Shown here one piece after another: positions 16,657 to 21,531 of a DNA stretch of 64,000 nucleotides (the first letter of the stretch is position 1; each line of letters starts with the position of its first letter). The notes under the pieces are model-generated. The model searched no databases. It saw only the letters and a list, made by a program, of their open reading frames with translations, and was not told the origin of the DNA. The stretch comes from Dehalococcoidia bacterium (GTDB lineage Bacteria > Chloroflexota > Dehalococcoidia > Lucifugimonadales > UBA826), in contig JAPYSB010000007.1 of NCBI GenBank assembly GCA_029936675.1, forward strand, positions 2,520 to 66,519. The letters run 5' to 3'. Made by a program: the position numbers and the translations under genes.

Positions 16657-17309
16657 TGCCATTTCAAGGTTTTATAAAAGGGGTGAGGTACATACCCGTT
16701 CCTGCTCCTGTATTCGGAGAATTATTGCAGGAAATTCAAGATATAACTGAGTTAAAAATAATTCTTCGGATTATCCGTTTGCTGCACAATAAAAAAGGTT
16801 TGGAAAGGTATGTGTCCATAGACGAACTGCTGGCAGACCGTGTTCTTTCAATCGGCATGGGCTCGATGGATCTGGATAGTCGGAGAACACATATCCTTCA
16901 GTCTTTAGAATCGTCAGAGAAACGGAAAATATTAATTAAGATCAACAGGAAAAATACAGGCACATTCGCATATTTCTTGAACACGGAATTCGAAAGGCAA
17001 GCAATCGGGAAAATGAAGGATTCTGAACACCAATCCGACTTTGAGCCTTGGGAAACCGGCGAAGATAGACCAAATATATATTCTCTTTATGAACAAAATA
17101 TTGGTATATTAACTCCGATTGTGGCAGAAAAAATCGGAGAAGCTGAACAAAGATACCCTGTGGAGTGGATAGAGGAAGCAATAACAGAGGCTGTATCTCT
17201 AAATTCAAGAAATTGGAGATACATTTCGAGAATACTAGAACGGTGGGAAATAGAGGGAAAACAAAATGGAGAATCTAGGAAGCATTCTGGCAAAGCTAGA
17301 TACATTTAA
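16656..17309 (+). CDS. DnaD domain protein
   Basis: C-terminal DnaD/DnaB_2 motif (IYSLYEQNIG...WIEEAI...NWRYISRILERW); translationally coupled to dnaB. Confidence 0.85.
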   Translation: MPFQGFIKGVRYIPVPAPVFGELLQEIQDITELKIILRIIRLLHNKKGLERYVSIDELLADRVLSIGMGSMDLDSRRTHILQSLESSEKRKILIKINRKNTGTFAYFLNTEFERQAIGKMKDSEHQSDFEPWETGEDRPNIYSLYEQNIGILTPIVAEKIGEAEQRYPVEWIEEAITEAVSLNSRNWRYISRILERWEIEGKQNGESRKHSGKARYI

Positions 17310-18618
17310 AGCTAACAGAAGCAACGATCTCTCTCAAGATATAGATCTAAATCCACCTATAATTTGTGATATATGCAACGATAAAGGCTGGCTAACCCCC
17401 AAACTTCCAACGGGTCACCAAGATTTCGGGTCGATAAAATCTTGTGTGTGTCGAAAAAATGTAAAACAGGAAGAACTGACGACGAGGCTACTTTCATACA
17501 GTAACTTAGGGTCTCTCTCACGCTACACTTTTGAAACTTTAGATCTGAAAAATGAAACAGCTCAACAGGATGCGGACGACATCTTTCGTGAGGCTTTCAT
17601 AAACTGTTCCAATTATTCCGAACGCCCGAGCGGCTGGATATTGATCAACGGTCCCCATGGATCCGGCAAAACACACCTTTCCGCGGCAATAGCTAACAGG
17701 TGTATTTCAACAGGAAAACCCGCGTTCTTTATATATGTACCTGATTTAATGGACCATCTCAGAGCTAGTTATACAAATAATTCAGACTTTGAATATGACG
17801 ACTTATTTGACCAAGTTAAGAATGCGCCAATATTAATCCTCGACGGTATAACTGACCACAGCGTAAGTAGCTGGTCGGCGGAGAAATTGAATCAGATCCT
17901 CAATCACCGATCAAACGGAAGACTCCCCACTATTTTGACGACTTCTGAAGATATCAATTCTTTAGACCCGTTTATTAGAAGCCGAATATACGATTCAAAT
18001 CTTTGCAATATAGTCACAACGGATTCAAGAATTAGTAGTTATGATGAAATGTCTTCTCTCGGGGCTATTCCTAAAGAGCTTTCACAAATGAACTTCGATA
18101 CCTTTAACTCAAAAGGGAGGAGGGGAAATTCCAATTTAGAACCAGTGTTTGAAAGTGCCAAAAAATACAGTCAGACCCCAGATGGATGGCTCACCTTCTA
18201 TAGCGATAATTCAGGAGTGGGTAAAACCCATTTGGCAGTTGCTATCGGGAATTACCGCAAATCAGTTGGCGAGGATGTTTTCTTTGCATTCGTACCAGAA
18301 TTGATGGATGAATTGAGATCCGGGTTCTCTCCCGACAGCTCACTTAGCTCATCTCGTATTTTCGATAGGGTTAAGGATTCCTCATTATTAATTTTGGATG
18401 ACTTGGGAAATGAACAAGATACAAACTGGTCCCAAAAAACGATATATCATCTTTTGGTTTACCGACACAATCACAGACTACCAACGATTATAACGACCAG
18501 GACAGATTTCACCAGCATAGCCAGTAAAAGCGCGCAAGCCTCCAGAATTCAAGATGCGAAAATAGGCCAAATTCTGAACATACAAGCTCCAGATTACAGA
18601 ATGGGCAGAACCCGATAA
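17266..18618 (+). CDS. DnaC/DnaI (IstB-like) helicase loader with two tandem AAA+ domains
   Basis: N-terminal CDIC...CVC zinc site and two Walker A motifs (GPHGSGKTH and SGVGKTH), each followed by VPD/ELMD.LR and LILD. Confidence 0.85.
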   Translation: MENLGSILAKLDTFKANRSNDLSQDIDLNPPIICDICNDKGWLTPKLPTGHQDFGSIKSCVCRKNVKQEELTTRLLSYSNLGSLSRYTFETLDLKNETAQQDADDIFREAFINCSNYSERPSGWILINGPHGSGKTHLSAAIANRCISTGKPAFFIYVPDLMDHLRASYTNNSDFEYDDLFDQVKNAPILILDGITDHSVSSWSAEKLNQILNHRSNGRLPTILTTSEDINSLDPFIRSRIYDSNLCNIVTTDSRISSYDEMSSLGAIPKELSQMNFDTFNSKGRRGNSNLEPVFESAKKYSQTPDGWLTFYSDNSGVGKTHLAVAIGNYRKSVGEDVFFAFVPELMDELRSGFSPDSSLSSSRIFDRVKDSSLLILDDLGNEQDTNWSQKTIYHLLVYRHNHRLPTIITTRTDFTSIASKSAQASRIQDAKIGQILNIQAPDYRMGRTR

Positions 18619-18639
18619 ACACAGGAACCAAACCTTTAA

Positions 18640-19005
18640 ATGACAATAGCTGAAGGCTGTATATTCTGCGAAATAATTTCCGGAAAGGAACCGGCTGATT
18701 CCTACCACGAGGAAAAAGATTTTGTGGTCTTTGAAAATAACCTTAGATGGTTTTCAACTCAATTGCTTTTCGTACCCAAATTACATATGACCCAGTCTAA
18801 TTTATGGTCATCGAAAAGTTTGATATCTGAAATCGGATTTCTTGCTAATGAAATGGGTCAGAAAAGGTGTCCATCGGGTTATAGAATTCTCTCCAATTTT
18901 GGAGAGGACGGTATGCAGTCCCAGAAGCATGCACACCTGCACCTAGTTGGTGGAAGTAAATTGGGAATGTACGTATGGGGTAAGCTGAGGAAAAACCCGC
19001 TGTGA
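18640..19005 (+). CDS. HIT family nucleotide-binding protein
   Basis: CIFC at the N-terminus and a Q..KHAHLHLVGG histidine triad. Confidence 0.9.
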   Translation: MTIAEGCIFCEIISGKEPADSYHEEKDFVVFENNLRWFSTQLLFVPKLHMTQSNLWSSKSLISEIGFLANEMGQKRCPSGYRILSNFGEDGMQSQKHAHLHLVGGSKLGMYVWGKLRKNPL

Positions 19006-19097
19006 GAAAGTAGCGAAAATTCCCGAATATCTCTATTACCCTCCAAATGGCAAAATGCGGTTATATGATGTCAACCATATTAAATATGTCTTCATCG

Positions 19098-20153
19098 CTA
19101 CGAATTAAGTGCATTATCAGCCCATAGGATTATTTCTTCAGTTTTGTCCCAACCAACACAGGCATCTGTAATTGATACACCATACTCCAGGGTACCTGGA
19201 TCATTACCAAGTTTCTGACTTCCAGGATTTATATTGCTCTCAAGCATCACTCCCACAATGCTATTGTTCCCGCCTGCTCGCTGTGAAATCACATCTTCAA
19301 ACACCGAAGGCTGTCTTTCGTGATCTTTATTAGAGTTACCATGACTGCAATCAATTATTAATCGCTGGTCCAACCCCCCGTTGGATAAAACTTCATTAGC
19401 CGATTTTATTGAATCTGAGTCATAGTTAGGACCTAATTTACCCCCTCTCAACACCAAATGGCCATCTGGATTACCACCAGTTCTTAAAACACACACGTGC
19501 CCATCAGGCCCAGTCCCTACATATGAATGCTGGCTGCGGGCGGCCAATATACCATCCACCGCGGTCTCAAAACTTCCATCCGTACCATTCTTGAACCCAA
19601 CCGGAATTCCAATTGCACTCGCCATCTGTCTATGGGTTTGACTCTCAGTTGTCCTTGCACCTATTGCAACCCAAGAAACTAAATCTTCAAAATAATGCGG
19701 GACTACAGGGTCCAAAACCTCACAAGCTGCAGGCATTCCCATGTCATTGATTTCTTGCAGCAATCGCCTTGCTCGCTGTAATCCTTGTGAAATATCAAAT
19801 GTCTCATCGAGCCCAGGATCATTTATCAGACCCTTCCAACCTACCGTTGTTCTAGGTTTCTCAAAATATACTCTCATCACAACATATATTTTTTCACTAA
19901 GCCGATCTCTCAGTTCAATCAGTCTTCGAGCATAATCCAGAGCGGCTTCCTCGTCATGAATAGAGCAAGGTCCCGTTATTATCATTACTTTATCGGCATC
20001 GCCATGGAGAATATTTTTTATTGTCTTTCTAGCCTCTTGAACGGTTAAAGCGGCATTATCAGATCTGGGAAATCTGTCTACTAGCTCTAGGGGGCTAAAC
20101 AAGTGATTTGAAGAAAACCCCAACCCTTGGACATGGCTTTTTTGACTGCTCAT
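19098..20153 (-). CDS. aroF: 3-deoxy-7-phosphoheptulonate (DAHP) synthase, class I-alpha (AroF/G/H family)
   Basis: Motifs GPCSIHD, RVYFEKPRTTVGWKGLINDP, IGARTTESQTHR, DCSHGNS and YGVSITDAC. The choice of aroF over aroG is inferred. Confidence 0.93.
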   Translation of the reverse strand: MSSQKSHVQGLGFSSNHLFSPLELVDRFPRSDNAALTVQEARKTIKNILHGDADKVMIITGPCSIHDEEAALDYARRLIELRDRLSEKIYVVMRVYFEKPRTTVGWKGLINDPGLDETFDISQGLQRARRLLQEINDMGMPAACEVLDPVVPHYFEDLVSWVAIGARTTESQTHRQMASAIGIPVGFKNGTDGSFETAVDGILAARSQHSYVGTGPDGHVCVLRTGGNPDGHLVLRGGKLGPNYDSDSIKSANEVLSNGGLDQRLIIDCSHGNSNKDHERQPSVFEDVISQRAGGNNSIVGVMLESNINPGSQKLGNDPGTLEYGVSITDACVGWDKTEEIILWADNALNS

Positions 20154-20223
20154 TTTAATCCTCAATTTTTGAATTGAATTTTTTTGCTACTTTTGCTACT
20201 TTTATGATCTATTCATAAAACCC

Positions 20224-20258
20224 AAAAAAAAAAGCCCCAATCGCTACCGATTGTGGGC
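20224..20258 (-). terminator. Attenuator terminator upstream of the DAHP synthase
   Basis: GCCC-A-CAATCG-gtag-CGATTG-G-GGGC hairpin followed by T10 on the minus strand. Confidence 0.9.
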
Positions 20259-20282
20259 TCCTGTCTGACTTTGGATATATTC

Positions 20283-20372
20283 CTAGAGTTTACACAAGTC
20301 CTTTATCGGCAGCTGACTTAAGCTACTAAAATAATAATAAAAGTGTGTGTGTTTATAGAATTTATTTTCCAT
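20283..20372 (-). CDS. Phe/Tyr-rich leader peptide MENKFYKHTHFYYYFSSLSQLPIKDLCKL
   Basis: Manual translation. Seven of the first 15 codons are Phe or Tyr, including the run FYYYF, and the ORF precedes the terminator and the DAHP synthase. Confidence 0.85.
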   Translation of the reverse strand: MENKFYKHTHFYYYFSSLSQLPIKDLCKL

Positions 20373-20382
20373 AGCATGCCGG

Positions 20383-20411
20383 ATAGTATACTCTTTCACA
20401 AATGGTGTCAA
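20383..20411 (-). promoter_or_regulatory. Sigma70-type promoter for the leader and DAHP synthase
   Basis: TTGACA (20411-20406), 17-nt spacer, TACTAT (20388-20383). Confidence 0.7.
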
Positions 20412-20443
20412 TAAATCTCTAACCCAAATTAAGAAGCATAAAT

Positions 20444-21421
20444 ATGTCTAATATCCCTTCTGAAATGATTCCTTGTTGCGCGGCATCCAGGAACTCCAAG
20501 TTGCCCATTTATACCTCTAAAGTGCGAGGGACTAAAAAATCTCAACCGGAATTCATTAACCCAAAAAACATGGCCACCATTACAGGTGGCACATTTCAGA
20601 TGGGTGCTGATTACGAGTTCGGCTTTCCAGGTGATGGAGAAGGGCCAATAAAGGAAGTGAGACTGGATTCCTTCCTAATTGACATCACCGCTGTTACAAA
20701 CAGGAATTTTGCTGACTTCGTAAAAGAAACAAAATACAAAACCGACGCGGAGCAATTTGGCTGGTCATTTGTATTTTATAAATTCATTGCTCCCCGAAAT
20801 GCGCGATCTGCCAATCAATCTCCTGCGGGTACCCCGTGGTGGAGAAGAGTAGACGGGGCGTCTTGGAAACACCCAGAAGGTACTGGTTCCAATATAAGAA
20901 CTAGAATGAGCCACCCGGCTGTCCATATCTCATGGAATGATGCAACTGAGTTTGCCTCTCACTACGGAAAACGTCTGCCAACTGAAGCAGAATGGGAATT
21001 TGCAGCACGTGGTGGCGAAAAACAACAATTATACCCTTGGGGAAATGAACTCCATCCAGAAGGCCAACACATGTGCAATATATGGCAAGGGGAATTTCCA
21101 ACCATCAACTCGGAAGATGACGGATTTGCAGGCACTGCTCCGGCCAAAAATTATCCTCCAAACGGCTATGGGTTGTATAACGTAGTCGGGAACGTATGGG
21201 AATGGCAGCAAGATTGGTTCAGCAATTCCTCCAACGACATGGATGCCAAATACGACCCTAAGGGTCCGGATTTTGGTACATCAAAAACCATAAAAGGAGG
21301 CTCCTACCTCTGCCACGAATCATATTGTAATCGCTATCGGGTGGCCGCCAGAAGTTCAAATACACCGGATAGTTCCACCGGCAATCTGGGATTTAGATGT
21401 GTTTCCGACATTAAAACCTAA
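20444..21421 (+). CDS. Formylglycine-generating enzyme (sulfatase-modifying factor)
   Basis: Motifs RLPTEAEWEFAARGG and GNVWEW, with the catalytic GGSYLCHESYCNRYRVAAR retaining both Cys. Confidence 0.92.
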   Translation: MSNIPSEMIPCCAASRNSKLPIYTSKVRGTKKSQPEFINPKNMATITGGTFQMGADYEFGFPGDGEGPIKEVRLDSFLIDITAVTNRNFADFVKETKYKTDAEQFGWSFVFYKFIAPRNARSANQSPAGTPWWRRVDGASWKHPEGTGSNIRTRMSHPAVHISWNDATEFASHYGKRLPTEAEWEFAARGGEKQQLYPWGNELHPEGQHMCNIWQGEFPTINSEDDGFAGTAPAKNYPPNGYGLYNVVGNVWEWQQDWFSNSSNDMDAKYDPKGPDFGTSKTIKGGSYLCHESYCNRYRVAARSSNTPDSSTGNLGFRCVSDIKT

Positions 21422-21531
21422 AATTGTCGATAGCGGAACTAAAAACCTTGCGATACAATTTTGCTGGCTGAGCCAGATCCTGAATACTTCAGCAAAGAGT
21501 ATTAGTTCACATTATGCGAATGGGTAGTTAG

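Follow-up and report, generated by a model that had tools for sequence, protein, structure and literature searches.

A predicted tyrosine/phenylalanine leader-peptide attenuator ahead of the DAHP synthase gene in a Dehalococcoidia-like marine bacterium

How is entry into the shikimate pathway controlled in uncultured marine bacteria related to the Dehalococcoidia? The question is raised by a locus in a 64,000-nt stretch of contig JAPYSB010000007.1 (the whole stretch analyzed is called the window here). In it, the gene for a DAHP synthase (DAHP, 3-deoxy-D-arabinoheptulosonate 7-phosphate) is preceded, on the minus strand, by a promoter, a short open reading frame (ORF) with a run of tyrosine and phenylalanine codons, and an intrinsic terminator. 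A preliminary description had proposed that these parts make up a leader-peptide attenuator. We have examined this proposal by computation. The parts, their conservation, the reading frame, the alternative folds, the geometry and the co-variation were all computed and are described below. Judged on these grounds, the element is predicted, with a probability of roughly 0.85, to be a ribosome-mediated transcription attenuator of the DAHP synthase gene, one that would sense the charging of tRNA with Tyr and/or Phe.

All leader parts lie in a 290-nt gap between the DAHP synthase gene and a divergent plus-strand gene (start 20444). The promoter consists of a -35 hexamer TTGACA (20411-20406), confirmed in the sequence and conserved in relatives, and a -10 hexamer TACTAT (20388-20383) after a 17-nt spacer. 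Both were recovered by a promoter scan, in which this site scored 10/12, the top promoter-like site of the 3 kb within 18500-21500. The sequence GAGTATACTATCC is kept within the genus as well as in a number of others. Transcription is predicted to start at about 20378-20375, leaving a 5' untranslated region of only about 3-6 nt ahead of the leader ATG. The leader-peptide ORF, MENKFYKHTHFYYYFSSLSQLPIKDLCKL, extends over 29 codons from the ATG at 20372 to a TAG at 20285-20283. Its translation contains the putative regulatory run FYYYF (TTT TAT TAT TAT TTT, 20342-20328) and, nearer the start, a second aromatic pair FY (20360-20355).

Downstream of the run, the RNA can pair in two incompatible ways. 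An intrinsic terminator (20258-20224), detected also by a terminator scan, has a stem of 20258-20248 with 20243-20234, a GUAG loop and exactly ten T at 20233-20224. Its hairpin (20258-20234) was calculated at -18.0 kcal/mol including the tail, and the U10 tract stands 70 nt before the DAHP synthase gene. The alternative is an antiterminator, a long imperfect hairpin of 71 nt (20313-20243) at -25.9 kcal/mol, whose base is the pairing of region 2 with region 3, that is GCTGCCGAT/GCUGCCGAU (20313-20305) with ATCGGTAGC/AUCGGUAGC (20251-20243), 9 bp with one G-U. This base helix takes in the terminator's 5' arm and loop and also the first base of its 3' arm, so that the two structures are mutually exclusive. 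Further upstream, region 1 (GUAGCU, DNA GTAGCT, 20326-20321) pairs with AGCTGC (20314-20309) in a 1:2 hairpin of 6 bp, one of them G-U, which is part of the minimum free energy fold. For the whole 171-nt leader this fold reached -43.4 kcal/mol (z = -3.43), and none of 200 shuffled sequences folded as well. Two full-length fold states were nearly equal in energy, at -40.1 and -37.9 kcal/mol. Every coordinate given in the preliminary description, for the promoter, the 29-aa ORF with its FY and FYYYF, both pairings, the terminator and the U10 tract, agreed with our check of the minus strand.

If the ORF has a regulatory function, its aromatic codons and its frame should be found in relatives. In a search of 41 related genomes the enzyme was found in 32, among them 23 of the family's 24 other genomes, and the upstream DNA was cut from each; counting the genome studied here, the family set comprises 24 loci. 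A complete Tyr/Phe leader ORF followed by a terminator stands upstream of the orthologous DAHP synthase gene in 20 of the 24, and one more (L015) has a partial leader, with the 3' two-thirds present at a contig end. All the family leader peptides carry a Y/F cluster that ends in Y-F (for instance YYYF, YYF, YYFYWFYYF, YFFDYYYYF or YNYFTYYYF) and are otherwise diverse, as is seen in MRHDVRLNKYYFKG... (L014), MNKYFAYRFNYFRS... (L013), MNTKYYFYWFYYFSS... (L020), MLDINRYFFDYYYYFIS... (L021), MARNYFYHKFYYFRS... (L022) and MCYNYFTYYYFGS... (L023). Among the 11 loci of the genus, the cluster is YYYF in 10 and YYF in L002. The F/Y frame is open for 24-30 codons in the 20 complete leaders and is the only frame that is always open. 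Insertions and deletions among the leaders of the genus are whole codons (multiples of 3), and the TAT>TAC changes in the Tyr run of L004, L005 and L006 are synonymous in this frame. An overlapping frame is truncated to 7 codons in 5 of the 11 genus members.

The geometry of the leader is remarkably constant. In the 20 complete leaders, the 5' end of the antiterminator follows the last aromatic codon at a distance of 15-20 nt (mostly 17), and the leader stop codon is 0-4 nt from the antiterminator apical loop (3 nt at this locus). These distances are kept although the middle of the leader is not alignable between genera. Because of such conserved spacings, a ribosome stalled on the run would just clear region 2, and one that finished translation would sit on the antiterminator. 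We have modeled the switch by cutting each transcript just after the terminator loop and placing a ribosome on the last aromatic codon, with an assumed footprint of -15 to +12 nt. With the stalled ribosome in place, region 2 paired into the 5' arm and loop of the terminator, over 11-18 bp, in 20 of 20 family leaders, so the conservation of the antiterminator that the preliminary description had proposed to look for is borne out in the model. The resulting antiterminator was always a single long imperfect hairpin of 65-71 nt. The full-length leaders contained the 1:2 hairpin and the terminator in every fold.

Co-variation was examined in a MAFFT alignment of the 20 leaders. For the terminator and the 1:2 hairpin together, 87.8% of the cells were paired and 30 were double changes, a result reached by none of 500 shuffles; controls in which the structure was slid along the alignment had 27-48% of cells paired. 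Taken alone, the terminator was paired in 89% of cells, with compensatory changes at 6 of its 12 pairs, and the 1:2 hairpin in 85%. For the antiterminator we compared the duplex formed by each region 2 with its own terminator 5' arm and loop against those formed with foreign ones. Over 12 representatives the duplex energies summed to -214.0 kcal/mol, where permuted partners averaged -158.6 (sd 10.5). The observed value was reached in 0 of 20000 permutations with the 12 representatives and in 1 of 20000 with the 9 from the family, and these figures overstate the significance, as the representatives are partly related. The compensatory changes that the preliminary description had set as a check are thus present: region 2 and the terminator co-vary. 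A guessed leader in the GC-rich relative L026 was rejected, with only 4 bp reaching the terminator and a fit to its own terminator that ranked 12 of 12. The weakly aromatic leader of L025 (3 aromatic residues among 6, Y-L-Y-C-T-F) is kept as a possible candidate.

The element is also specific to one gene. A covariance model (R1) was built from the aromatic run through the terminator. Of the order's 151 genomes, 7 gave a hit, each with a single copy; these include all 4 family genomes sampled and G000. The model is sequence-bound, so that a miss does not amount to absence. All 7 copies precede a DAHP synthase gene. The two weak hits in other families, in L116 and L117, likewise closely precede a DAHP synthase gene (58% and 51% identity), and the leaders there encode MKFATTSFYFSTYAYFSG... 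and MGDLRLDNWFLPYTYFSS..., respectively. Among 80 diverse named DAHP synthase loci, 9 had upstream a short ORF with at least 4 of 5 residues F/Y/W followed by a terminator, while three control scans (the reverse strand, the downstream flank and the reverse of the downstream flank) gave 0 of 80 each. The nine come from Dehalococcoidia/Chloroflexota metagenome-assembled genomes (MAGs; L031, L032 and L039), a Polyangiaceae MAG (L048), gamma- and betaproteobacterial MAGs (L079, L083, L085 and L102) and a Desulfobacter MAG (L095). As these 9 of 80 loci span such groups, the leader design recurs in several phyla. In L048, L079, L083, L085, L095 and L102 the leaders and terminators stand 60-142 nt upstream of class I-alpha DAHP synthase genes. 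Examples of the leaders from other phyla are MNTRKTGKFYFYYRYYFYTRLPVLR and ...GFFWFGFYYFFEK, and several of them include Trp.

The preliminary description had put forward the architecture of ribosome-mediated attenuation, and the aromatic cluster in the ORF, the terminator, the exclusive antiterminator and the stalling geometry were each found. Its check on the F/Y codons likewise came out in favor of the proposal, given the 20 family loci with a leader and the additional partial one. The response to charging, the coupling between ribosome and polymerase, and which of Tyr or Phe matters in the signal are what we infer from the computed features. Transcription would start at about 20377 and the 29-codon leader would be translated almost from the 5' end. 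With Tyr-tRNA and Phe-tRNA charged, the ribosome would traverse FYYYF and region 2 (20313-20305) and come to the stop codon at the top of the 71-nt antiterminator. There it would keep the antiterminator from closing, the terminator (20258-20234 plus U10) would form, and transcription would end at about 20224-20233, those 70 nt short of the gene. With low charging of Tyr or Phe, the ribosome would stall on the aromatic codons, covering region 1 and with its front edge a few nt short of region 2. Region 2 would then pair with the terminator 5' arm and loop, no terminator would form and the polymerase would read through into the DAHP synthase gene.

Several observations count against an attenuator of this kind. 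The first concerns the 1:2 hairpin, which is present just as the preliminary description had it; its regulatory weight is another matter. It was calculated at -6.8 to -8.9 kcal/mol, far weaker than the antiterminator at -25.9, and the antiterminator also forms in several truncated folds lacking translation. For both reasons the textbook role of the 1:2 hairpin appears doubtful in our folding model, and termination probably depends on the ribosome passing through region 2 to the stop at the antiterminator apex, not on the 1:2 hairpin. The second is the start of the leader ORF, which has no Shine-Dalgarno sequence, so that its translation would need near-leaderless initiation. The third is that the column co-variation of the antiterminator is modest. 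The columns of its base helix were paired in 77% of cells with 6 double-change cells, a value reached by 8 of 500 shuffles; 4 pairs were changed on both sides, and 56 of 500 shuffles reached that number. One such double change is U-A to C-G, from GCUGCC:GGUAGC to GCCGCC:GGCGGC. The weakness of this signal is due to register shifts in the distant genera, and for that reason the own-versus-foreign duplex test described above was used.

Chance expectation within the genome has to be counted on the same side. There, of 123,689 short stop-to-stop frames, 61 hold a window with 5 of 5 residues F/Y/W and 1550 a window with at least 4 of 5, and the terminator-like sites number 390. Roughly estimated, chance alone would bring an aromatic short ORF and a terminator together about once, and precisely one such case was seen. 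On these counts we rejected the argument that their closeness would be improbable by itself. We judge the element to be non-random because of its place before the DAHP synthase gene and because of the conservation, the frame conservation and the co-variation in relatives. To the same side belong three family members without the leader (L012, L018 and L019). A last point touches the signal. The preliminary description had the switch sensing both Tyr and Phe; the Tyr/Phe run is indeed conserved, and it is the sensing of both amino acids that is less secure. In the comparable aroR-aroF system of Corynebacterium glutamicum, Tyr availability was without effect despite a Tyr codon in the leader and the response was to Phe, according to the available passages of a review (PMC11802643).

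As to those three loci, L012 (genus g6) has neither leader nor terminator before the DAHP synthase gene, and a divergent or upstream gene ends nearby. In L018 and L019 (genus g5) a promoter, TTGACA...TATAGT, and a strong terminator are kept about 70-190 nt upstream. The leader is short, and its sole ORF, of about 8 codons with one Tyr, is not aromatic-rich. The element in these two is either a decayed attenuator or a different control.

Three other explanations of the locus have been weighed. One, which we regard as improbable, is that the short transcript is mainly a trans-acting small RNA (sRNA) or a small-protein gene, the DAHP synthase being expressed by readthrough or from another promoter with no amino-acid sensing. 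The metatranscriptome data bear on it; they are assembled contigs, the ends of which are not RNA ends. A discrete 151-nt contig (X2, depth 2.5) aligns to 20228-20375, covering just the leader, which is the span of the predicted terminated transcript, and it ends at 20375 with 3 further unaligned letters. It can be read in favor of an sRNA, and it is also a weak hint of the predicted start and of a terminated leader; its 13 differences indicate that it derives from a relative, one more item on the negative side for the attenuator. Other RNA contigs cover the DAHP synthase gene, one up to 20143 and another up to 20202. No listed RNA contig spans the terminator, and in X1, X4 and X5 the depth over the leader bins is slight or nil, which argues for neither side. 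RNA-library contigs at least 99% alike were found in marine/seawater runs.

Further points that would suit an sRNA or a small protein are the C-terminal part of the peptide, SSLxxLPxKDLC, which is conserved in the genus, and sub-threshold matches to sRNA families, Spot_42 with 19.8 bits (gathering score 80) and, for the leader of L013 (1320-1446), the Bacteroides sRNA BTnc231 with 30.8 bits (gathering score 80.4, E = 0.015). In Sinorhizobium, a role in trans is known for terminated attenuator RNAs. Against all this, the codons for this conserved C-terminal part fall on regions 1 and 2 and on the antiterminator stem; beyond the genus it is the aromatic run, the pairing and the geometry that are conserved and not the peptide sequence; the element occurs only before DAHP synthase genes, once per genome; and the promoter scan found no second promoter-like site between the terminator and the gene. 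A role in trans could in any case be added to attenuation and would not replace it. The hits to S15, Spot_42 and ctRNA were dismissed as terminator-like chance matches. The BTnc231 sRNA might itself be an aromatic-pathway leader.

A second explanation, quite improbable in our judgement, accepts the switch as real and has it set by an RNA-binding protein, by uncharged tRNA in the manner of a T-box, or by a riboswitch, with the F/Y ORF incidental to an AT-rich sequence. TTT and TAT are AT-rich codons in a genome of 42% G+C, the genome holds the 1550 aromatic short frames counted above, and L018 and L019 retain promoter and terminator with no aromatic ORF. On the other hand, the aromatic run is retained in leaders whose G+C is much higher, as well as in other phyla, the frame and the position of the stop codon are conserved, and the fixed distance of 15-20 nt from the run to the antiterminator is explained only by a ribosome footprint. 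Nor did the known families offer a substitute. Searched with Rfam, the region 19900-20700 gave 9 matches up to E = 10, with no leader family among them and none at or near its gathering score; no T-box or riboswitch family was matched at E up to 10 in the same region. In 15 related loci there were two matches only up to E = 0.05, both to non-leader models and under their gathering scores, with T-box and riboswitch families again absent. The element thus matches no Rfam leader model, such as Phe_leader, Trp_leader or His_leader. Highly improbable is the third explanation, that the regulatory frame is an overlapping one from the ATG at 20377 (MLWKINSINTHTFIIILVA) sensing Ile, Leu and Val. In its favor, this ATG could form the extreme 5' end if the mRNA is leaderless (the predicted start coincides with it), the stop codon of the frame falls within the 1:2 loop, as that of trpL does, and the frame is open in the window and in L001-L006. 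Against it, the frame runs for only 7 codons in L007-L011, and other genera lack it or have an unrelated one; the first codon is GTG in 6 of the 11 genus members; the TAT>TAC changes are non-synonymous in it (I to T); and branched-chain sensing would be metabolically senseless for a DAHP synthase.

With ribosome-mediated attenuation as the preferred reading, it can be asked how it compares with known systems. The C. glutamicum aroR leader has reportedly been studied by Neshat et al. 2014, as cited by a review. It lies upstream of the aroF operon and encodes Phe-Tyr-Phe, and ribosome stalling under Phe limitation raises transcription, going by the passages available (PMC11802643); the same leader was seen by RNA sequencing (PMC4046766, available in part). 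The likeness to our locus is twofold: Phe and Tyr codons occur in a leader peptide placed directly upstream of a DAHP synthase gene, and stalling raises (here, would raise) transcription. C. glutamicum belongs to the Actinomycetota, the organism studied here probably to the Chloroflexota, and no sequence relation is expected. The run found here is Tyr-dominated (YYYF), in a 29-codon ORF that extends through the antiterminator strand to the apex, compared with the Phe-Tyr-Phe of aroR as given in the available text. One DAHP synthase was found here, against two in C. glutamicum (PMC4046766).

In Escherichia coli, DAHP synthase genes are repressed by TyrR/TrpR (PMC11802643, in the passages available). 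The preliminary description had set the locus against this background, and that contrast needs correcting: the lineage is not E. coli-like, the nearest named relatives of its enzyme being Dehalococcoidia/Chloroflexota MAGs, and Phe/Tyr leader control of a DAHP synthase was already known from C. glutamicum, as far as the accessible text tells. With the E. coli pheL-pheA and trpL-trpEDCBA attenuators the element shares a run of end-product codons, an exclusive antiterminator and terminator, and an intrinsic terminator before the gene, in so far as the available passages describe them (PMC11802643, PMC3082878). It differs from them in regulating the entry enzyme of the pathway and not a terminal branch, in mixing Tyr and Phe in one run, in a stop codon that lies beyond region 2 at the antiterminator apex instead of between regions 1 and 2, and in a weak 1:2 hairpin. 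There are also computational predictions of a similar kind, in operons of Vibrio with an aroF-type DAHP synthase and tyrA (attenuators in the Merino database, PMC1173090 Table 7) and in the 5'-UTR of Shewanella aroF, where a motif is called "attenuator sensing tyr-tRNA" (PMC2659441 Table 3). Both are from gammaproteobacteria, and as the accessible passages give no leader peptide or structure, they are likened to our element by description only. A literature search found no paper describing such a leader in Chloroflexi or Dehalococcoidia, and older attenuator surveys may hold predictions; the Chloroflexi are mentioned once, in passing, in the available part of PMC4833913. The type of attenuation is therefore not new in kind, given the C. 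glutamicum precedent, and what we have here is a new example in a lineage for which no published description was found.

The regulated gene (19098..20153, minus strand) encodes a class I-alpha DAHP synthase of the AroF/G/H type with 351 aa, by its matches to NF009395 (490.9 bits, cut-off 343) and TIGR00034 (458.9 bits); it scores under the AroG- and AroH-specific cut-offs. Its ATG is preceded by GAGGA, and the gene is apparently monocistronic, since the one after it is convergent. Dehalococcoidia/Chloroflexota MAGs supply the closest named relatives of the enzyme, at 58-52% identity, and the probable placement of the organism is based on these. No second DAHP synthase was found in the genome, which is 96.5% complete: the class II model had no match, and the class I-beta model gave over the whole genome only a 24.6-bit cross-hit to the same class I-alpha gene. 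With a single DAHP synthase detected at this completeness, the attenuator appears to gate the sole entry to the shikimate pathway.

We have also looked for other attenuators in the genome. No leader was found upstream of its pheA, tyrA and trpE. The 390 terminator-like sites were scanned for runs of any amino acid and no credible leader-peptide attenuator emerged, with thresholds that could miss weak terminators; the candidates were rejected for lying inside coding regions or ahead of unrelated genes. In G000, on C53, about 150 nt upstream of tyrA (prephenate dehydrogenase match C53:143771-144226, minus strand), there is a perfect 10-bp hairpin of the type CCAAGCTTCA...TGAAGCTTGG. It sits just before the start codon, and that intergenic region has no leader ORF and no U-run.

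Some features around the element deserve mention. The divergent gene, a 325-aa ORF (20444-21421, plus strand), begins 33 nt from the leader -35 box, and both promoters must share the short gap. A 9-nt unit, GTAGCAAAA, stands twice in tandem between the terminator and the start of the DAHP synthase gene (20182-20199, minus strand), and a metatranscriptome contig (X1, record 7) has a third copy as a 9-nt insertion behind 20181. Its GUAGC, which could pair with region 2, is found again in region 1 and the terminator loop. This repeat is probably incidental, since it is not conserved in L002-L011. Elsewhere in the window, a 450-aa ORF (17266-18618, plus strand) has two apparent P-loop (GxxGxGKT) modules, judged by eye.

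The recurrence of aromatic leaders before DAHP synthase genes invites a wider reading, for the present a tentative and rather unlikely one, by which they represent one uncatalogued design that arose or spread across many phyla. Such a design would consist of a near-leaderless mini-gene with the aromatic run 15-20 nt before an antiterminator of about 70 nt and the stop codon at its apex. In such a system the untranslated state would read through, and termination would need a ribosome pacing the RNA polymerase. If true, this would indirectly support both near-leaderless initiation and tight transcription-translation coupling in uncultured, Dehalococcoidia-like marine bacteria, and would mean a single-enzyme gate on the whole shikimate pathway in them. 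As neither the element nor its relatives in other phyla are represented in Rfam, genome annotation misses them, and a family model made from the alignments could fill this gap.

The understanding of attenuation itself is unchanged by these results. What they offer is a concrete and testable candidate for a regulatory element in a marine lineage that is uncultured and whose gene control is almost unknown. A working leader-peptide attenuator would imply that ribosomes closely trail the RNA polymerase in this organism. Its shikimate flux is apparently set by transcription, with the charging of Tyr- and Phe-tRNA as the signal, on a single DAHP synthase.

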